Below are positions 37,133 to 47,386 of a DNA stretch of 64,000 nt, one piece after another (position 1 is the first letter of the stretch; each line of letters opens with the position of its first letter). The translations under genes and the position numbers were made by a program. The notes beneath the pieces are model-generated. The model was not told where the DNA came from and did no database searches. It saw nothing but the letters and a program-made list of their open reading frames with translations. Source of the DNA: Candidatus Eiseniibacteriota bacterium (GTDB lineage Bacteria; Eisenbacteria; RBG-16-71-46). The stretch spans positions 1,600,001-1,664,000 of the forward strand of contig CAVQXP010000004.1 in NCBI GenBank assembly GCA_963717935.1, given 5' to 3'.

Positions 37133-38707
37133 CTACGGCTCCGGGGCGACCTTGCAGATGATCGCGGTCAGGTCGTCGGTCTGGGGGCCGCCCTCCGCGA
37201 AGGCCCGCGCGCCGGCGATGAGCCCTTCGAGCACCTGCCGGGCGGACCCCGCGAGGTGGGCCCTGACGATTCGCAGGGCCCCTTCGGCGCCGAGGAGGCG
37301 GCCATCGGGTGCCTGGCTCTCCGTGATCCCGTCGGTCATGAGGACGACGGTGTCGCCGGGTTCGAGCGCGATGGGCGCGGCGTCCGTGACGCCCCAGGCC
37401 GCGGAGACGCCCAGCGGAGTCCCGCTGCTCTCGAGCGCGGCCCGCACCCGGCCGTCGCGCCCCAGGACGAACCCGGAGGGATGGCCGGCATTCGCGTAGG
37501 TCAGGGACCGGGTGCGCGCGTCCAGACGCGCCAGCAGCATGGTGACGAAGCGCCCGTCCTCCAGGTCCGCGATCAGCGTCCGGTTGAGGGCGCGCAGCAC
37601 GTCGCCCGTGCCGGGGAGCGTGCGCACGAAGGCGCGCAGGTACGCGCGTGTCGCGGCCATGACCAGGGCGGGGCCCAGGCCGTGCCCGCTGACGTCGCCG
37701 ATGACGATCTCGAGCCGGCCGTCCTCCGTGACGACATAGTCGAAGCAGTCGCCGCACATCGCGGCGGCCGGGTGCGCGGCGCCGGCGATGTCGAACCCGG
37801 GGAACTCGGGTGCGCGCGCGGGGAAGAGCCCCTGCTGCACCCGGCGGGCGATCTCCAGCTCGAGTTCGTGCTCCCGCCGCAGATGGCGGTCGGTCATGTC
37901 CTTGCCGACCGCCACGAAGTGCGTGACCGTCCCGGTCGGGTCCTTGATCGGCGTGATGGTCATCTCGGCGTAGTAGATCTCCCCGCTCTTGCGCCGATTG
38001 ACCATCGTGCCGCGGAAGACCTCGCCGGCGAGCACCGTGCTCCACAGTTCGCGATAGTGGGCCGCGTCATGCCGGCCCGAGCGGAGCAGCCGCGGTGTCC
38101 GGCCGAGGATCTCGTCCTTCGAGTAGCCGGTGATGCGCTCGAAACCGGGGTTGACGTATTCGACCACGCCGTCGCGGTCCGTGATGTAGATGGCGTCGGC
38201 GGTCTGCTCCACCGCGTTGGACAGGCGACGGACGGCGTCGTCGGCGTTCCGGTGGGCGGTGATGTCCCGGAAGACCGCGACCCCGCCGAGGAGTTCTCCC
38301 GAGGGGTCCCGCCAGGGCATGGCGGTAACGCTGATCACCGCGCCGTCCGGCCGGTGCGGACCGCGCACGTAGATCTCGGCGTCGCGCGCGGCCTCGCCCC
38401 TGGCGGCGCGGACCAGGGGCAGCTGCTCGGGTGGATAGGGCGTGATCCGGTCGGGGAGGAAGAGGCCGTAGGCGTCGGACCAGGCGCCCGGGGGCGCGTC
38501 CAGAGAACCGACGCCGAGGATCCGTTCGGCGGCCTCGTTGAAGACCAGGAACACGCCCCGGCGATCGACGACGACGATGCCGTCGGAGACGGTCTGGAGG
38601 ATGGGTTCCAGGGCCCGCGACCGCGCGCGCACCGAGGCGCGGCCGGCACCGGACCGATACGAGCGTGTCCCGGGATCGCTGCGGGTCCGTTCCCTGGCGG
38701 TCGGCAT
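37133..38707 (-). CDS. PAS-PAS-SpoIIE (PP2C/RsbU-like) phosphatase
   Basis: Two PAS domains; ARRVQQGLFP, CGDCFD, GDVSGHG, NAGHP, TDGITE, DDLT; start uncertain. Confidence 0.9.
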   Translation of the reverse strand: MPTARERTRSDPGTRSYRSGAGRASVRARSRALEPILQTVSDGIVVVDRRGVFLVFNEAAERILGVGSLDAPPGAWSDAYGLFLPDRITPYPPEQLPLVRAARGEAARDAEIYVRGPHRPDGAVISVTAMPWRDPSGELLGGVAVFRDITAHRNADDAVRRLSNAVEQTADAIYITDRDGVVEYVNPGFERITGYSKDEILGRTPRLLRSGRHDAAHYRELWSTVLAGEVFRGTMVNRRKSGEIYYAEMTITPIKDPTGTVTHFVAVGKDMTDRHLRREHELELEIARRVQQGLFPARAPEFPGFDIAGAAHPAAAMCGDCFDYVVTEDGRLEIVIGDVSGHGLGPALVMAATRAYLRAFVRTLPGTGDVLRALNRTLIADLEDGRFVTMLLARLDARTRSLTYANAGHPSGFVLGRDGRVRAALESSGTPLGVSAAWGVTDAAPIALEPGDTVVLMTDGITESQAPDGRLLGAEGALRIVRAHLAGSARQVLEGLIAGARAFAEGGPQTDDLTAIICKVAPEP

Positions 38708-39057
38708 GGGGGATGTGCACTCCTGAGGCGAAGGGCCGGTGAAGTGCGCCGCCGCGGCGAACGGTGCGGGTGCGTCCCTGCGGGGGGATGCCGGTTTCTC
38801 GAATCCGGAGGGCGCGCGATCTGGAACGCGATCCCACCGTGGCCGAGAGGTTGTGTCCGGAGCGGGCGACAGTTGTCCGGGGGAGGACAATCATCCCGGG
38901 CCGGCGTCACAGCGGGCTCTGGTGTGGTGCCCGCGTGCGGCGGGCCTGAACTTCCGGGCCGCTCCGGCGGCGTCTGCGGCTTCGGGCAGGCGACGCGCTC
39001 TCATGCTATCCTCGGCGCGCCTTCGTCACGCCCAACCTGCCTTCCAGGGGAGCCGCC

Positions 39058-39963
39058 ATGCCGATCACCAAGCTCGACCAGATCGTCGAAACCGTGAAGT
39101 CCCGCCCCCGCAAGCGCCTCATCGCCGTCTGGGCCAACGACTCGCACACCATCGCCGCCGTGGGGCAGGCCGTGAGCCTGGGCCTCGTGGAGGGCACGCT
39201 GGTAGGCGACGAGGCCGCCATCCGCTCCGTCTGCAAGAGCGAGGGGCTCGACCCCGGGATGTTCGCCATCGTGCAGGAGTCGTCCGACACGAGCGCGGCC
39301 GCCCGCGCCGTGGCCATGGTGAACGCCGGTGAAGCGCAGATCCTGATGAAGGGGCTGGTCTCGAGCGACAAGTACATGCGCGCCATCCTCCACAAGGAAA
39401 AGGGACTCATGGATGCCGGCGCGATCCTGAGCCACGTGACCGTGATCGAGGTCGAGCGCTATCCGAAGCTCATTGTCTGCGGCGACGTGGCGGTCCTGCC
39501 GGCGCCGGAGCTCAAGGAGAAGATCGCGATCACGCGCTACCAGATCGCGGTGGCCCACGCGCTGGGCATCGAGCGGCCCAAGGTGGCGATCATCGCGGCC
39601 ACCGAGCAGATGCTCTACAAGATGCAGGCCTGCGTGGACGCGGCGATCATCGCGAAGATGGCGGATCGCGGCGACATCAAGGGCGCGCTCGTGGACGGTC
39701 CGCTCGCCCTGGACGTGGCGGTGGATGCCGAGGCGGTGGCGATCAAGGGGCTGAAGAGCGCGGTGGCCGGAGACGCGGACTGCCTGGTGTTCCCCAACAT
39801 CGAGTCGGGGAACGTCTTCTACAAGACCTGCACCAAGCTGGCGGGCGCGGAACTGGCGGGTCTGGTGGTGGGCGCCCGTGTCCCGTGCGTACTGACCTCG
39901 CGGGGCGACACGGCGAAGAGCAAGATGTACTCGATCGCCCTGGCGGCCCTCACGGCGCGCTGA
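39058..39963 (+). CDS. ptb: Phosphate butyryltransferase
   Basis: LMKG, LSHV, DGPLALDVA, GDADCLVFPNIESGNVFYK, VLTSRGD. Confidence 0.9.
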   Translation: MPITKLDQIVETVKSRPRKRLIAVWANDSHTIAAVGQAVSLGLVEGTLVGDEAAIRSVCKSEGLDPGMFAIVQESSDTSAAARAVAMVNAGEAQILMKGLVSSDKYMRAILHKEKGLMDAGAILSHVTVIEVERYPKLIVCGDVAVLPAPELKEKIAITRYQIAVAHALGIERPKVAIIAATEQMLYKMQACVDAAIIAKMADRGDIKGALVDGPLALDVAVDAEAVAIKGLKSAVAGDADCLVFPNIESGNVFYKTCTKLAGAELAGLVVGARVPCVLTSRGDTAKSKMYSIALAALTAR

Positions 39964-39969
39964 CCGGTA

Positions 39970-40040
39970 GCGGCTCCAGCGAATCGACCCCGGCGAGCGC
40001 ATGGTGCCTCTGCTCGCCGGGGTCGATTCGCTGGAGCCGC
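39970..40040. repeat. Perfect 29-bp inverted repeat with 13-nt loop
   Basis: GCGGCTCCAGCGAATCGACCCCGGCGAGC (39970-39998) and its exact reverse complement (40012-40040). Confidence 0.9.
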
Positions 40041-40124
40041 AGCCCCCCGGGCCGGTTCCGCGGCTCCGGTGGGCGATGGTCGGAAAGGGTGCCCCGGGCT
40101 CGAACCCGGATCGCCTTCGTTCGT

Positions 40125-42377
40125 CTACCCGCCCTGGCCGGACGCCGGCCGGGACGCCGGCTGCCGGGGCTCCGCCACGTACTGGCGCGCTTCCTCCTTG
40201 CCGTCGAGGACGCGCAGGACGCCCTTGACCAGCGCGGAGAGTTCGTTCTCGCCAGGGTAGAGGCTCACGCCGCAGCCCATGGCCGCGACCATCCGCGTGA
40301 TCTCGCCCACGAGGCGCTGCGAGCGGGCCATGCCACCCGTGAGCAGGATGCGATCGACCGGCTCGCCGTCGAAGGCCGGGACGAGCGAGGCGATCTCCTT
40401 GGCGATCTGGTAGACCATCGCCTCGAAGACCTGCGCCGCCTCCTGGTCGCCGGCATCGATGCGGCGCTCGACCTCGCGCAGGTCGGCCGTGCCGAGCAGA
40501 TCGATGAGCCCGCCGCGCCCCTTGTTGAGCAGCTTGAGCTCGGGCTTCGTGTAGCGGCCCGAGAAGCACAGCTCGATCAGTTGGCCGGTGGGCATGCCGC
40601 CCGAGCGCTGCGGCGAGAACGGCCCTTCGCCGTCCAGCGCGTTGTTGACGTCGATGTAGCGGCCGCGCTTGTGCGCGCCCACGCTGATGCCGCCGCCCAG
40701 GTGGCAGACGATGACGTTCACCTTCTCGTAGAACGTCTCGTGCTCCTCGGCGTAGCGGCGTGCGGTGGCGATCTGGTTGAGGGCGTGGCTGATGATCTTG
40801 CGGCGCACGGCCTTCATGCCGCTCACGCGGACGCGCTCGGGTGCCTCGTCCACCACCACGGGGTCCACGATGAAGGCGGGCTTGCCGAGGCCGGTGGTCA
40901 GCTCGCGGGCGATCAGCGCGCCCAGGTTCGAGGCGTGCTCGCCGTAGCGTGCCGTGCGCAGGTCGGCCACCATGTCGTCGGAGACGGCCAGCGTGCCGTG
41001 CGGGATGGGGTGCAGGATGCCGCCGCGGGCCGCGATGGCATCCAGGTCCGCCACGCTCAGTCCGTGGTCGGCCAGGGCCTTCGTGATGATCTGCTTGCGG
41101 AAGGCGTATTGCTCGGTGATGCCCTTGCCCTCGAAGGGGAGCAGCTCCTCGGCCGTGTGCTGCAGTTCGAGCGTGAAGCGCTCCTCCTCGCCCTCGAAGA
41201 CGCCGATCTTGGTCGACGTGGAACCTGGATTCAGGGCCAGCACGCGGTGGCGGTGGAAGAAGGTATCGCGCGGCGTGCGGTCCCACTCGCCGAAGCGGTA
41301 CATGCGGAGCACCGAGGCCTTGACCGCGAGCCGGATGTCCTCGGGCGCGCAGTCCATGGGAAGGTCTACGCCGCGGAACCGCAGGCCGAACATGGCGGGG
41401 AACTTCTTCGCGTCCGGGAAGCGCGCCGCGTAGAGGTGGTAGAGCAGGTTCCCCATCTCGAGGTTCGGGCAGATGATCACGTTGGGGCTGCCGCCCCACG
41501 TCGACTCGCGGTTCCCGTCGTAGTACATGGCCGAGCGCTGCGACAGCGCCACCGAGACCTTGACCTCGCCCTGGATGCGGATCGTCGCGTAGCGCTCGTT
41601 CTTGTCCACGCGCTCGGCCAGCACGCGGGGGATGAGCGCCATGGCCTGCCGGACCAGTTCGGGCGAGGGGCCCTCGTCCGAGCCGCGGTTCGAGTAGGAG
41701 ACGATGACGCCGTGGATCTCGGGCAGCACCTCCACCGGGATCAGGTCGCGCGCGATCACGCAGGTGCCGACCGCCACGTGGGCGAGCGCCTCGGGCGTCA
41801 TGGTGGCGTTCACGCCGACGTCACCGAAGACCACGATGCCGTGCGGGAAGACATCGGGCGTCGTGTCGTCGGGGAGCACGAAGACCCCCGCCTCGCAGCG
41901 CACCGGCTGCCGGGCGAGCAGCCGGACCATGGGCCGGAAGTAGTCCCTGGGTGCGTGTGTGGCGCCGCCCACGACCGTGTCGGCGTGGCCGAGGCGCACG
42001 GCCCAGATGCCGAAGCGGGCGGGCTCCATGACCGTGCGCCGCGCCTGGTCGAGCGGGATCTCGGCATCCTGCTCCTTGCAGAATTCGAACTGTGCGCGCG
42101 CGAACTCCTCGACCAGGTCGGTGCGCCCGGGGATGTCCACGAAGGCGCTCTCCGACAGGAAGAAGTCCACGCGGTCGGCATCCACGTGACCGAGGCTCCG
42201 GGCGATCACGTCACGCACCTGCGGCTCGGAGGCCAGGAACACGGGGCGCACGAAGCGGACGAGGTGGCAGACCGCCTCGATGACGCGCGGGTCGAGGGCC
42301 TCCGGGAAGACGACGGTGGGGCGGGCCTTGGTGAAGCCCTGGATCTGCTGGTCGAAGGTGTCTTCGATATCGAACAT
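40125..42377 (-). CDS. buk: Fusion of a phosphotransacylase (Pta)-like domain and butyrate kinase
   Basis: N-half VVFPE, SYSN.GS, PNLEMGN; C-half NPGSTSTK, RGG, HASNLG, DPVVVDE, HALNQ, HLGGGISV, GEGPFSPQRSG, LTGG, YPGENE. Confidence 0.9.
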   Translation of the reverse strand: MFDIEDTFDQQIQGFTKARPTVVFPEALDPRVIEAVCHLVRFVRPVFLASEPQVRDVIARSLGHVDADRVDFFLSESAFVDIPGRTDLVEEFARAQFEFCKEQDAEIPLDQARRTVMEPARFGIWAVRLGHADTVVGGATHAPRDYFRPMVRLLARQPVRCEAGVFVLPDDTTPDVFPHGIVVFGDVGVNATMTPEALAHVAVGTCVIARDLIPVEVLPEIHGVIVSYSNRGSDEGPSPELVRQAMALIPRVLAERVDKNERYATIRIQGEVKVSVALSQRSAMYYDGNRESTWGGSPNVIICPNLEMGNLLYHLYAARFPDAKKFPAMFGLRFRGVDLPMDCAPEDIRLAVKASVLRMYRFGEWDRTPRDTFFHRHRVLALNPGSTSTKIGVFEGEEERFTLELQHTAEELLPFEGKGITEQYAFRKQIITKALADHGLSVADLDAIAARGGILHPIPHGTLAVSDDMVADLRTARYGEHASNLGALIARELTTGLGKPAFIVDPVVVDEAPERVRVSGMKAVRRKIISHALNQIATARRYAEEHETFYEKVNVIVCHLGGGISVGAHKRGRYIDVNNALDGEGPFSPQRSGGMPTGQLIELCFSGRYTKPELKLLNKGRGGLIDLLGTADLREVERRIDAGDQEAAQVFEAMVYQIAKEIASLVPAFDGEPVDRILLTGGMARSQRLVGEITRMVAAMGCGVSLYPGENELSALVKGVLRVLDGKEEARQYVAEPRQPASRPASGQGG

Positions 42378-42571
42378 GCGGTCTCCGGCTCCCGCGCCGG
42401 CCGGGGAAGAGGGTCGGTCCGTGCGCACGGCGGTACTTGGTTAAGCCATCGGACGACCGGCGACGCCGGTCGCAACGGGGCATTCTAGCAATGGAACGGC
42501 CCCACGTCGCGCAACGCGCCCGCTCGAGCGCCGCGGCCAGGCTGGCGGCGCTCGAGGGGACGATCCCGGCC

Positions 42572-43183
42572 TTACACGGATTCCCTGGTCCCGCCCTCCG
42601 GCTCGATGCCCTCCGGGGTCCGTTGCCTGCATTCGGTGCAGAGCTCGTCCGCGAGCAGGAAGTCAGGGTGCTTGCGCAGGAAGATTCGCACCTGGCCGAG
42701 GGGATCGGACGCCTTGCGGTCCGCGCCGCAGCCCGGGCAGAGGGGGAGGAGCTCGCGCAGCTCGACGAGCTGGGTGGCGTCCTCCAGCACGACCAGCACG
42801 AGCTTGCGGCCCTCGAGTGCCAGCGGCGAGGCGCTGACCAGGAACCAGCGGTCCTCGGGCGGTCCCGTCGCGCCGAGGATCATGTGCGCCATGCGGCGCG
42901 GCGCCGGCCGTCCCGACACCACCGCCTCGATGGACTGCCGCAGGACACAGGACGGGCAGAAGTCGGTGGTGCCGCAGCCGCCGCGGGAGTCCTGCGGGAA
43001 GATGCAATGGAGCACGTCTCCGGGATGCAGGCTCAGCCGCGTTCCGACTCCGTCGCCCAGCCACTGCCGGGCGGCCCGGTTCGCTTCGAGGATCGTCGCT
43101 TCGCCATCCGCGACGAAGGCCAGGGAAGGGAGCGCATCGAGCAGCGCGAGCAGGCTGGAGCCTTCCGGTAGCACGTGTTCCAT
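42572..43183 (-). CDS. PAS-domain protein with two Cys clusters and no output domain
   Basis: LLDALP...ILEAN; GDVLHC...CGTTDFCPSC; LPLCPGC...LCTEC. Confidence 0.7.
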   Translation of the reverse strand: MEHVLPEGSSLLALLDALPSLAFVADGEATILEANRAARQWLGDGVGTRLSLHPGDVLHCIFPQDSRGGCGTTDFCPSCVLRQSIEAVVSGRPAPRRMAHMILGATGPPEDRWFLVSASPLALEGRKLVLVVLEDATQLVELRELLPLCPGCGADRKASDPLGQVRIFLRKHPDFLLADELCTECRQRTPEGIEPEGGTRESV

Positions 43184-43389
43184 GGTGGCAACCTCGCAGC
43201 GAGCGATGGAGGGCAGCGGGACAGCGGCGGGCCCGGGTGGTGGACGCCGTTTCGGAAGGTGGGCGCTCCGGCACCGAAATCGGGTCGAGCCTGCCACAGG
43301 CCCGGACCCCAGGCAAACGGTCCGGCCTGCCGGGGGCCCGCGCCACCCCGCACTCGTGGTCACATCCGTCACGTCCGGGGTCTGGGTCT

Positions 43390-43561: not shown

Positions 43562-45678
43562 ATGAGCCGCACCGCCACGCTCCGGCGCGGAACCCGCGCC
43601 TTCGCCGCCTCTGCGGCACTCTTCGCCATCCTGGTCGCAGCCGTTCTCCTGCCGGACGCCGTCCGAGCGGACGAGGGCATGTGGACCTTCGACCACCTGC
43701 CGCTCCAGCGGCTGCAGGAGCGCTACGACTTCACGCCCACGCCCGAATGGGTCGAGCACGTCCAGAGGGCCTCGATCAACTTCGGCGGTGGTTCGGGTGC
43801 CTTCGTGTCGCCCGACGGGCTGGCGCTCACGAACCACCACGTGGCGCTCGGCCAGATGGCGAAGATGTCCTCGCCCGGGCACGACTACGTCCGCGACGGC
43901 TTCTTCGCGCGCACTCGCGCCGAGGAGCTGCCCTGCCCCGACCTCGAGCTCAAGGTGCTGATGACCAGCCAGGACGTGACCGCCCGCGTCCTGGGGGCGG
44001 TGGACTCGGCGGCCGTCGACCAGCGAGCAGAGCGCCCAGCGCAAGGTGGCCATGGCCCGCATCGAGCAGGAGGGGAGCCGCGACGGGCTCAGGGGCGAGG
44101 TGGTCGAGCTGTACCGCGGTGGCGAGTACTGGCTCTACCGCTACAAGACCTACAAGGACGTGCGCCTGGTGTGCGCGCCCGAGGAGCAGGCCGCCTTCTT
44201 CGGCGGCGACCTCGACAACTTCTGCTATCCCGCGCCACGACCTGGACTTCGCCTTCTTCCGCGTCTACGAGGACGGCCGGCCGGTCCGCCCGCAGCACTG
44301 GTTCCGCTGGAGCAAGGAGGGCGCGCGCGAGGGCGACCTCGTCTTCGTGGCGGGCAATCCGGGCACGACCAAGCGACTCTACACCGTGGCGCAACTCGAC
44401 CACGAGCGGAACCTGCGATCTGCCGCTGCGGATCCGCCTCAACGAGCAGCGCCTCGCGGCCTACCGGGCCTACGGGGCGCGCGGGCCCGAGCAGGAGCGC
44501 CAGGCCCGCGACCGGGTCCGCGGCCTCGAGAACAACCTCAAGCGCCAGCACGGTTTCCTGGAGGTGCTCTCGGACTCCGGCGGTGATGAAGGCGCGCCGC
44601 GACCGCCGAGGCGGCCCTGCGCCAGCGCATCGCCGCGAACCAGGCGGTCTCGGGGCTGGCGAGCCTCGCCTGGGAGCGCATCGCCGGCGCCATGAAGGAG
44701 ATGGGCCGCCGGCACACGGAGCACGTGGTGCGCGATCTCTCGCGTTCGAGCCGCCTGCTCGACATCGCGAACGGCATCGTGCGCTACACCACCGAGGTGG
44801 TGAAGCCCAACGAGCGAGCGCTTCAAGGAGTACCGCGACGCGAGGCTCGACTCCGAGCGCTTCCGGCTCTTCTCGCTCGCGCCCGTCTATCCCGAGATGG
44901 AGGAGATGACCCTCGGCGTGGTCCTGAGGCAGTGCCGCGGACGAGCTGGGCGCGGACGATCCGTTCGTCCAGGCTGGCGCTGGGCGGACGCACGCCGCAG
45001 GAGTGTCGCGCACACGCTGATCGCGGGCACGAAGCTGGGCGACCTCGCCGTGCGCACGGGCCCTGATCGAGGGCGGTGCGCAGGGCCGTGGCCGCCTCGA
45101 AGGATCCGCTCATCGTCTGGGCGCGTAGGCTCGACGCTCCCTACCGCGAGCTGCGTGCCTGGCACGAGGACCGCGTGCAAAGCGTCGAGACCCTGGACGG
45201 CGGGAGGATCGCGCGGGCGCGCTTCGCGCTCGAGGGCCGGGCGCTGCCCCCGGATGCCACCGGCTCGCTGCGGCTCTCCTACGGGAAGGCGGTCGGCTAC
45301 CCGCAACTGAGCACGCTGGTGCCCTGGGCCACCACGTTCCACGGCCTCTTCGACCGGGCGCTGAGCTTCGGTGGCCAGCCGCCGTTCGACCTGCCGGCGC
45401 GCGTCGCCGAGCACGAGAAGGACCTCGATCTGGCCACGCCGCTGAACTTCGTCAGCACCGACGACATCATCGGGGGGAACTCGGGCAGCGCGGTGCTGAA
45501 CCGCGCAGGCGAGTACGTGGGCCTGGTGTTCGACGGCAACGTGCAGGCCTACGCCTGGGACTACTACTACACCGAGGAGCAGGCGCGCTGCGTCTCGGTG
45601 CATTCGCGGGCGCTGATCGAGGTGCTGCGGAAGGTCTACGACCTGGGCGCGCTGGCGGACGAGGTGGAGGGGAAGTAG
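43562..45678 (+). pseudogene. S46-family dipeptidyl peptidase, multiply frameshifted (probably sequencing indels)
   Basis: ADEGMW, LTNHHV, DVRLV.APE, FFGGD.DNF, GNPGTT, PDATGSLRLSYG, DIIGGNSGS and GLVFDGN spread over all three frames. Confidence 0.85.
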
Positions 45679-45890
45679 CCCCCGGGCACGGCGCCAGAGG
45701 CGCGGCGGGGACCAGCGGAGGGCGAGCGTGTCCGTACTTAGCCGCCTTCCGCTGGTCCCCGCCGCGCCTCTGGCGCCAGGGCAGGTCGGAGGGCGAACGT
45801 GCGGACGATCAGCCGCCCTCCGGCTGGCCCCGCCTCCGTCGCGCCCTGTTGGAGTCCCGGACTCGCCCTGTGGCATAGTGCGGCCCGACC

Positions 45891-47386
45891 ATGACCTCCA
45901 CCCGCGCATCCGGTCTCCTGCTGCATCCGACGTCGCTCCCCGGACGCTTCGGCATCGGCGACCTCGGGCCCGAGGCGTCGCGCTGGGTGGACTTCCTCGC
46001 CGCGGCAGGGCAGAGGCTCTGGCAGGTCCTGCCGCTCGGTCCCACCGGATACGGCGACTCGCCCTACCAGAGCTTCTCGGCCTTCGCCGGGAACCCGTAC
46101 CTCGTGAGCCCCGAGCGGTTGTCCGAGGACGGTCTGCTGGGGCCCTCGGACCTCGCGGGAGTGCCAGCGTTCCCCGCCGACCGCGTGGACTACGGTCCGG
46201 TGATCGAGTGGAAGCTCGCGATCCTGGCGAAGGCCCACGCGCGCTTCTCGGCGGGCGCCGTCCCCGTGCTGCGCGCGGAGTACGATGGCTTCTGCCACGC
46301 ACAGGCGGACTGGCTCGAGGACTTCGCCCTCTTCATGGCGCTCAAGGAAGCGCACGGCGGTGCGACCTGGACCTCGTGGGAGAAGGGCCTGGTCGCGCGG
46401 GAGCCCGGGGCCCTCGCCGCCGCGCGCGAGCGCCTCGCGTCGGCGGTGGACTCGCAGCGTTTCCGCCAGTTCCTCTTCTTCCGCCAGTGGAGGGCGCTGC
46501 GCGCGCGCGCGCGCGCGGCAGGGCGTGCGCATCATCGGCGACCTGCCCATCTTCGTCGCGCACGACAGCGCCGACGTCTGGGCCCATCCGGAACTGTTCC
46601 AGCTCGACGCCCGGGGCGCGCCCGACGGTCGTGGCCGGCGTGCCGCCGGACTACTTCGCGAAGACCGGGCAGCTCTGGGGCAACCCGCTCTACCGCTGGG
46701 ACGACGCTGCGCGCGGGACGGCTACGCCTGGTGGGTGGAGCGGCTGCGCGCCACCTTCGAGGTCGTGGACGTCGTGCGGCTCGACCACTTCCGCGGCTTC
46801 GAGGCATGCTGGGAGGTGCCGGCGGGGCATGCCACGGCCGAGAACGGGCCGCTGGGTGAAGGGGCCGGGCGCGGCACTTCTTCGAGAGCGTGCGCGCCGC
46901 GCTGGGAGCGCTGCCCATCATCGCCGAGGACCTCGGCCTGATCACCCCCGAAGTCTTCGCGCTGCGCGACCGCTTCGATCTGCCGGGGATGAAGGTCCTG
47001 CAGTTCGCCTTCGAGAAGGACGCGCTGCACCCGTTCCTGCCGCACAACTTCCCGCACGAACTGCGTGGTCTACACCGGGACCCACGACAACGACACCACG
47101 CGCGGCTGGTACGCGAGCGCGCCCGAGAAGGAGCGCCACTTCGCGCGGTCCTATCTGGGTCGCGGAGGGCAGCGACATCACCTGGGACCTGATCCGCGCC
47201 GGCATGGCCTCGGTGGCCGACACGTTCATCGTGCCGCTGCAGGACGTCCTGGACCTGGGGCCCGAGGCGCGCATGAACCTGCCCGGCCGGCCGGGCGGCA
47301 ACTGGGGCTGGCGTTTCCGGCACGAGCAGGTGACGGACGCCGAGCGCGACCGGCTGCGGGGGCTCGTGGAGACCTACGGGCGATAG
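45891..47386 (+). pseudogene. malQ: 4-alpha-glucanotransferase (GH77), multiply frameshifted (probably sequencing indels)
   Basis: LLHPTSLP, WQVLPLGP, IIGDLPIFV, GVPPDYF..TGQLWGNP, RLDHFRGF, IAEDLG, YTGTHDNDT and RMNLPG in different frames. Confidence 0.88.

Follow-up and report, generated by a model that had tools for sequence, protein, structure and literature searches.

A butyrate kinase fused to a degenerate phosphotransacylase-like domain: a possible ligand-sensing pseudoenzyme in Eisenbacteria and other bacterial phyla

Why should a butyrate kinase carry, fused to its N-terminus, a phosphotransacylase-like domain that lacks the very residues on which phosphotransacylation depends? The question is raised by a gene on the minus strand of a 64,000-nucleotide stretch of DNA from Candidatus Eiseniibacteriota bacterium (contig CAVQXP010000004.1 of assembly GCA_963717935.1; hereafter 'the window', whose own coordinates are used throughout), in which a domain of the phosphotransacetylase (Pta)/phosphate butyryltransferase (Ptb) type, referred to as PTA-like, precedes a butyrate kinase (Buk). 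We establish here the architecture of this fusion, the residues lost from its N-terminal domain, the evolutionary order of these losses, the synteny of the gene with ptb and the selection acting on both domains, and we propose, with a confidence that falls slightly short of even, that the PTA-like domain is a pseudoenzyme kept as a ligand sensor, which by analogy with known sensors of this fold would control the kinase.

Architecture of the fusion and active-site losses

The gene and its parts are located as follows.

40125..42377, minus strand: fusion gene, PTA-like domain followed by butyrate kinase, 750 aa plus stop (open reading frame list, translation, Pfam, NCBIfam)
42378..42395, minus strand: ribosome-binding region (GGAG) ahead of the ATG (read from the sequence)
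41253..42377, minus strand: N-terminal PTA_PTB-fold domain with conserved linker, residues 1-375, apparently catalytically degenerate (PF01515, AlphaFold2 (AF2), Foldseek)
41559..41570, minus strand: GEVK, residues 270-273, where GELQ is expected, i.e. Gln244 replaced by Lys (alignments)
41349..41366, minus strand: DLPMDC, residues 338-343, where the catalytic DLSRGC loop is expected (alignments and census)
40128..41252, minus strand: butyrate kinase domain, residues 376-750, apparently intact (TIGR02707, similarity to Buk2)

In the window's list of open reading frames (ORFs) the gene occupies a single frame (40125..42428, minus strand), which encodes 750 residues when read from the ATG at 42377; GGAG lies 5 nt upstream of this ATG, and the start matches the N-terminus MFDIE common to all homologues. 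Residues 15-348 match the Pfam family PTA_PTB (PF01515) with 98.5 bits (E 6e-28; gathering score 24), and residues 378-731 score 447.4 bits against the NCBIfam butyrate kinase equivalog TIGR02707, above its cut-off of 289.1. The kinase half likewise aligns with Buk2 of Thermotoga maritima (1saz/1x9j; 330 bits over residues 3-365 of the domain) and carries at residues 383-390 of the fusion the ASKHA phosphate-1 motif NPGSTSTK, which is kept as NPGSTSTK/R in 149 of 157 sequences. The linker between the two domains is conserved as TP.DTFF. The original prediction, made from the letters of the window alone, of a Pta-like N-terminal domain of ~370 aa fused in frame to a complete Buk is thus borne out. 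The fusion is the only Buk in its genome, which also encodes one AckA, one canonical Pta and one Ptb, and the gene appears to be the sole source of a butyrate (short or branched-chain acyl) kinase there; public annotation calls such 750-aa proteins just 'butyrate kinase'. A scan of 38850-42650 for promoters and terminators gave nothing above chance. The gene and its domain junction are also covered by metatranscriptome contigs of relatives ~91% identical (X19 record 18, 40339-42407; X18 record 14, 40864-41408); as RNA libraries can contain DNA, these contigs are no more than a hint of expression.

An AF2 model of residues 1-375, based on a 33-sequence alignment, has a pLDDT of 89.5 and a pTM of 0.90, and Foldseek matches it to Ptas with E values of 1e-19 to 1e-21, that is, to their two-domain α/β fold; a search of the ESM Atlas returned generic PTA_PTB clusters only. 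The domain shares this fold, and ~22-30% full-length identity, with class I phosphotransacetylases (M. thermophila Pta, 1QZT/2AF3; P. gingivalis Pta, 6IOW; E. coli EutD). Unlike these enzymes, however, it is fused to a kinase, it reaches only 101.3 bits against the pta equivalog TIGR00651, whose cut-off is 311.2, and it has lost a whole set of active-site residues.

Residue-by-residue alignments with five solved Ptas, including 1qzt, 6iow, 8fir and 1r5j, place DLPMDCAPEDI (residues 338-348) on the canonical DLSRGC..EDI segment and QGEVKVSVA (residues 269-277) on DGELQ.DAA. Positions are given in M. thermophila Pta (MtPta) numbering unless they are named as window residues. In the window protein, Pro340-Met341-Asp342 take the place of the catalytic Ser309-Arg310 pair and Gly311, and Pro143, Lys273 and Tyr286 that of Ser128, Gln244' and Lys257', which contact coenzyme A (CoA). 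A census covered (i) 147 close relatives (the window protein, 27 loci and 119 homologues), picked by similarity alone, (ii) 55 canonical Pta representatives of 320-346 aa, picked by length alone, and (iii) 12 deeper fusions and stand-alone relatives labelled 'SR' by motif, for which the presence of Ser309/Arg310 in 12 of 12 is true by definition. The meaningful contrast is that between the first two groups; the intermediates P0123, P0124, P0126 and P0135 were excluded.

Ser309: Ala 75, Pro 71, Ser 1 in the 147 relatives; Ser 55 in the canonical Ptas
Arg310: Met 136, Leu 4, Lys 3, Ile 2, Arg 2 in the 147 relatives; Arg 55 in the canonical Ptas
Gly311: Asp 147 in the 147 relatives; Gly 55 in the canonical Ptas
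Gln244: Lys 147 in the 147 relatives; Gln 55 in the canonical Ptas
Lys257: Tyr 131, His 15, Phe 1 in the 147 relatives; Lys 55 in the canonical Ptas
Ser/Thr128: Pro 137 in the 147 relatives; Thr 51, Ser 4 in the canonical Ptas

The substitutions in the cleft are fixed at 93-100% across the 147 relatives, which at the same time keep Asp307 (145), Asn279 (146), Tyr282 (135, plus 12 with Phe), Asp316 (147) and Arg133 (147). In window residues, this invariant cleft is made up of the remodelled Lys273, Tyr286, Met341, Asp342 and Pro143 and the retained Arg148, Asn310, Tyr313, Asp338 and Asp347.

Published work on active Ptas indicates what such losses may entail. In MtPta, Ser309 stabilises the substrate, Asp316 is the proposed base, and the contacts to CoA include Ser128, Asn279, Tyr282, Lys283, Gln286, Thr298 and Cys312; Gln244 and Lys257 come from the partner subunit, Gln244 reaching into the partner's CoA site (PMC9706017). 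In P. gingivalis Pta (PgPta), D309A, S311A and R312A each abolish activity, whereas 11% remains in D318A and the effects of R89A and R135A are moderate (PMC6461089). By analogy with these mutants, canonical transacylase activity has quite probably been lost from the fused domain. Both motif readings of the original prediction are exactly reproduced by the alignments, and its view of the domain as non-catalytic agrees with the loss, fixed across the clade, of the Ser-Arg pair and several CoA-contacting residues.

It is nevertheless conceivable, if unlikely, that the domain is still an enzyme, i.e. that a rebuilt active site performs phosphotransacylation or a related acyl transfer, making the protein a true bifunctional Ptb-Buk and leaving the adjacent Ptb to other acyl chain lengths. 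The retained equivalents of Asp307, Asp316, Asn279 and Tyr282, the invariance of the new Lys273 and Asp342, the strong purifying selection on the domain and its bifunctional-looking ancestors (both described below) would fit such an enzyme. Yet five positions invariant in 55 of 55 active-type Ptas (51 Thr plus 4 Ser at position 128) have been replaced together, a single Ala at the Ser or the Arg is enough to kill PgPta (PMC6461089), and the TIGR00651 score (101 versus 311 bits) points the same way.

Spread of the fusion and order of residue loss

Among 8000 candidates scored, 727 proteins match the fusion at E <= 0.001. Both Pfam domains are present in 120 of the 120 homologues listed (731-758 aa; 67-90% identity), and the fusion lies in one frame in 27 independent genome assemblies or loci. 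The hosts of these 27 include five cultured Geothrix species, and further hosts are metagenome-assembled genomes labelled Acidobacteriota, Holophagaceae, Eisenbacteria, Krumholzibacteriia, Fibrobacteraceae, Spirochaetales, Elusimicrobia and Myxococcota. Recurrence of the single frame and of the conserved linker throughout the 120 homologues and 27 loci rules out an assembly or frameshift artefact; the possibility, raised along with the original prediction, that the fusion is an artefact absent from relatives is thereby dispelled. A recurrent stand-alone form of the degenerate domain was not found among the matches: all 40 short hits are singletons, those with full coverage lying on contigs of 1.5-1.8 kb and P0122 being a frameshifted gene call, which is consistent with genes truncated at contig ends or broken by frameshifts. 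In a literature search whose coverage excluded subscription journals, no description of a PTA-Buk fusion was found.

Among 201 genomes sampled from the phylum to which the window belongs, the N-terminal domain was found in the window's genus alone (7 of 201, namely G000 and 6 of 6 congeners sampled), with none found in 80 other genomes of the family and in 17 other families sampled. Restriction to a single genus of the phylum, taken together with the spread over several phyla, fits lateral transfer of a two-gene cassette consisting of the fusion and ptb.

A search with the N-terminal domain of 1.84 billion representatives yielded 40 proteins at E <= 1e-30, clearly apart from canonical Ptas (~30% identity). 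Among these hits and those of a metagenome scan are fusions (P0137, L106-L110) which share with the window protein the architecture, the linker and an intact Buk motif, but which retain LDFSRSS, ELQ and Ser/Thr128; stand-alone versions of this SR-type domain exist as well (P0131, L111/L112). We computed an IQ-TREE phylogeny of 47 N-terminal domains, comprising 19 of the 147 close relatives, 4 intermediates, 12 SR-type domains and, as outgroup, 12 canonical Ptas, with no sequence of the hybrid malic enzyme MaeB. In this tree, (i) the fusion-type domains constitute one clade (100/100), (ii) the SR-type domains are basal and paraphyletic, and (iii) the intermediates and the degenerate type form a derived clade (100/100), within which P0124 (motif SK) and P0126 (AR) split off first, followed by P0135 (AR) and P0123 (AS), which group with the degenerate type (100/99). 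This order indicates that the catalytic residues were lost stepwise within an already fused family. The PTA-like domain would then be a derived pseudoenzyme which arose from fusions still keeping their catalytic residues, and presumably bifunctional, and not a sensor recruited from elsewhere.

One residue appears on the way to the degenerate type: an Arg at the Arg133 position is present in 147 of 147 members of the degenerate clade but in 0 of 12 of the basal SR-type relatives. In PgPta and in the MaeB of Bdellovibrio (BbMaeB) the Arg at this position touches the CoA pyrophosphate (PMC6461089, PMC7902834), which speaks, to a small degree, for nucleotide binding that was kept or regained.

Two further arrangements were encountered among the relatives. 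The metagenome representatives P0130, P0141 and P0142 exhibit the reverse pattern, i.e. a PTA domain that keeps Ser-Arg (PF01515, 140-169 bits) joined to a kinase with a degenerate phosphate-1 motif (NTARDSTH and IPDYYTTE are found) and a very long branch. P0149 (905 aa), in turn, fuses aldehyde dehydrogenase, 4Fe-4S, BMC shell and PTA_PTB domains and looks like a microcompartment-linked multi-enzyme protein.

The degenerate domain is not decaying. Nei-Gojobori ratios of nonsynonymous to synonymous substitution (dN/dS) for nine pairs range from 0.05 to 0.38 in the N-terminal domain and from 0.06 to 0.35 in the kinase domain, so that both domains are under equal purifying selection and the former must be regarded as functional. 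We consider it very unlikely that the domain is an evolutionary relic, needed just for folding or stability of the kinase and with no function of its own. Fusions often keep partner domains for stability, and stand-alone Buks within the clade (see below) show that the kinase fold can in principle do without the domain; but its dN/dS values match the low ones of the kinase, its substituted cleft residues show fixation in place of drift, and bacteria of several phyla still carry it, also after what looks like lateral transfer. It is the combination of purifying selection equal to that on the kinase with a remodelled, invariant cleft that leads us to read the domain as a ligand-sensing module.

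The neighbouring Ptb and the genomic context

The gene next to the fusion, and the motif that identifies it, are the following.

39058..39963, plus strand: stand-alone phosphate butyryltransferase (Ptb), convergent with the fusion, likely its catalytic partner (250 bits to CaPTB 7vg9)
39895..39909, plus strand: TSRGD catalytic motif of Ptb, residues 280-284 (alignment)

With 250 bits to C. acetobutylicum PTB (CaPTB, 7vg9) and the motif VLTSRGD, the convergent gene encodes a genuine Ptb that keeps its TSR motif, as had been predicted. The window's Ptb and Buk domain are ordinary members of the clostridial/Thermotoga Ptb-Buk pair (CaPTB 7VG9; T. maritima Buk2 1SAZ), in which acyl-CoA is converted via acyl-phosphate to acid plus ATP by separate proteins, the Buk there, in contrast to the window's, having no extra domain.

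Adjacency to ptb is a recurrent property of degenerate-type loci. In 17 of 27 the ptb adjoins the fusion. It is convergent in 8 (as in the window), and in the other 9, one of them truncated at a contig end, it follows directly downstream on the strand of the fusion. Five of the 10 loci without an adjacent ptb have short flanks; a genome-wide search of the other five found a Ptb-type gene in all of them, on the same contig 10-17 kb off in two and on other contigs in three. The motif [TS]SR[GAS]D is kept in 16 of 16 complete neighbouring Ptbs, and within the window's genus a Ptb is present in 8 of 8 genomes, adjacent and convergent to the fusion in 5. This conserved synteny, across the 27 loci and in the genus, backs the working link between fusion and Ptb that was originally proposed. 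Around SR-type fusions, in contrast, tblastn and a hidden Markov model built from the Ptb alignment, both run with positive controls, detected a Ptb-like frame in 0 of 5 loci within flanks of up to 5 kb. For a domain that is itself still an enzyme, both observations are awkward: an intact-TSR stand-alone Ptb accompanies the degenerate domain in every genome tested (17 adjacent, 5 of 5 elsewhere, 8 of 8 in the genus), and the Ser-Arg-keeping fusions are without ptb in their flanks.

The tight linkage to ptb could also be explained if the dead domain were a pure scaffold that binds no small ligand and forms an oligomer core or a dock for Ptb, e.g. as a pseudo-dimer, such that the labile acyl-phosphate is handed over directly. 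Pta and Ptb dimerise via domain II, with Gln244 and Lys257 provided by the partner, and CaPTB forms octamers (PMC9706017); it is exactly these two partner-contributed residues that are altered in the degenerate clade. Consistent with a scaffold are also the nine loci with ptb directly downstream, the conserved linker, and a correlation of the pairwise distances of fusion and Ptb (r about 0.79), although shared ancestry alone could give the latter. We regard a pure scaffold as somewhat unlikely, however: it would not need the former active-site cleft, which is invariant and not relaxed, nor does it account for the Arg gained in the degenerate clade at the position of the CoA pyrophosphate, and five genomes have their ptb at least 10 kb away or on another contig.

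Beyond ptb, no conserved neighbourhood was found: flanking genes differ among the loci, and many of the ORFs picked are without Pfam hit and probably spurious, the GC content being high. Possible sources of acyl-CoA in the genome are four POR_N loci and two strong E1_dh loci, none of which is in an operon with the fusion/ptb pair. In many Clostridia-type loci (L032-L083, mostly Bacillota), two paralogous kinases flank ptb in the order buk-ptb-buk.

Further genes of the window lie in the vicinity. A PAS-PAS-SpoIIE (PP2C) phosphatase gene (37133-38890, minus strand) lies on the opposite strand directly upstream of ptb and is not conserved beside the cassette elsewhere. Next upstream of the fusion, across a 194-bp gap, a Cys-rich ORF (42572-43300, likewise on the minus strand) contains several CxxC pairs and matches PAS_4 weakly; it could encode a redox- or metal-sensing regulator and was not found as a conserved neighbour of the fusion. 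Two neighbouring genes carry frameshifts, the fusion gene itself being intact. The Peptidase_S46 (dipeptidyl-peptidase) gene (43562-45678, plus strand) is split over three frames, its pieces 43562-44695, 44046-44909 and 45076-45678 matching profile positions 1-128, 136-195 and 494-697, respectively; it is frameshifted or a pseudogene, which may reflect indel errors in the assembly. The GH77 4-alpha-glucanotransferase gene malQ (45728-47386, plus strand) is broken up as well, its three or more frames including 45891-46859, 46890-47192 and the C-terminal part of 45728-47386.

Comparison with MaeB and a possible sensor function

The precedent for a PTA domain without activity is the hybrid malic enzyme MaeB, whose PTA domains are inactive acetyl-CoA sensors (PMC7902834) that bind acetyl-CoA and regulate the fused enzyme allosterically (PMC7902834, PMC12704298), the binding sites differing between E. 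coli and Bdellovibrio MaeB (PMC12704298). The analogy to MaeB drawn in the original prediction is thus apt, even though the residues lost are different ones. As in MaeB (B. bacteriovorus 6ZNG/6ZNT; E. coli 8JZO/9KRT), a PTA fold devoid of transacetylase residues is fused to another enzyme; unlike in MaeB, the domain is N-terminal and not C-terminal, and its partner is the next enzyme of the same pathway. BbMaeB has Val for Asp307, Gln for Ser309 and Tyr for Ser128 while keeping Arg310 and Gln244, and E. coli MaeB has Val-Leu-Thr-Pro at 307-310, His at 244 and Arg at 279, whereas the window's domain keeps Asp307 and Asp316 and has Pro-Met-Asp at 309-311 and Lys at 244. The window's domain also matches Ptas better (E 1e-16 to 1e-19) than MaeB (1e-8 to 1e-10). 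Common descent with the MaeB PTA domains finds no support in these weaker matches and in the grouping of the domain with those of PTA-Buk fusions in a tree computed without MaeB; judged from the sequences, the resemblance is convergent, with independent origins and not within the same family.

Our proposal of a ligand-sensing pseudoenzyme would thus take the following form. A bifunctional phosphotransacylase-kinase fusion would have lost from its N-terminal domain the reaction acyl-CoA + Pi <-> acyl-phosphate + CoA; the intact Ptb next to it would make the acyl-phosphate from which the Buk domain makes ATP, fusion and ptb being passed on jointly as a cassette of two genes. As a MaeB-like regulatory module, with CoA or acyl-CoA as its most likely ligand, the dead domain would gate the activity of the reversible kinase, and it might also have a part in organising the oligomer.

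Several observations weigh against this proposal. First, the retained equivalents of Asp307, Asp316, Asn279, Tyr282 and Arg133, along with the invariant new Lys273 and Asp342, could equally mean an altered catalytic site. Second, the structural comparison does not separate the two types of relative: set against Methanosarcina Pta and MaeB, a check suggested with the original prediction, the domain proved to have the PTA fold and the residue losses expected, but Foldseek TMq values are 0.68-0.72 to active Ptas and 0.70-0.74 to MaeB PTA domains, so that the model supports the fold while enzyme-like and MaeB-like forms appear alike. Third, two stand-alone Buks with ordinary starts (L030, 5938-7083; L079, 5842-7071) nest inside the Buk clade of the fusions (support 91), and the kinase hence does not strictly need the PTA-like domain; their position suggests secondary loss of that domain. 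Finally, the SR-type sample is small, with five loci from about two lineages and flanks of at most 5 kb, and ptb could lie elsewhere in those genomes.

It is tempting to speculate further, although we give this extended scenario clearly less than even credence, that the fusion represents a second, independently evolved allosteric sensor of the PTA fold: a pseudoenzyme which would read CoA or acyl-CoA and thereby control a reversible acyl kinase. The fusion would then be the first butyrate kinase under allosteric control, and its pseudoenzyme domain would have arisen by subfunctionalisation of a bifunctional Pta-Buk after a stand-alone Ptb had been recruited. The intermediates with SK, AR and AS motifs would then mark the path of this subfunctionalisation.

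Substrate-level phosphorylation by Ptb and Buk belongs to textbook biochemistry, and buk commonly serves as a marker of butyrate production; where the fusion is annotated as plain 'butyrate kinase', its conserved additional domain goes unnoticed. Bifunctional-looking fusions, intermediates and the pseudoenzyme form make up an unusually complete series within the family, and its cultured Geothrix hosts make the role of the domain testable. Should the domain prove to be a sensor of CoA thioesters, it would reveal how cells restrain a kinase that is reversible and consumes ATP, together with a pool of reactive acyl-phosphate, and it would constitute, beside MaeB, the second natural case of a PTA fold reused as a sensor.

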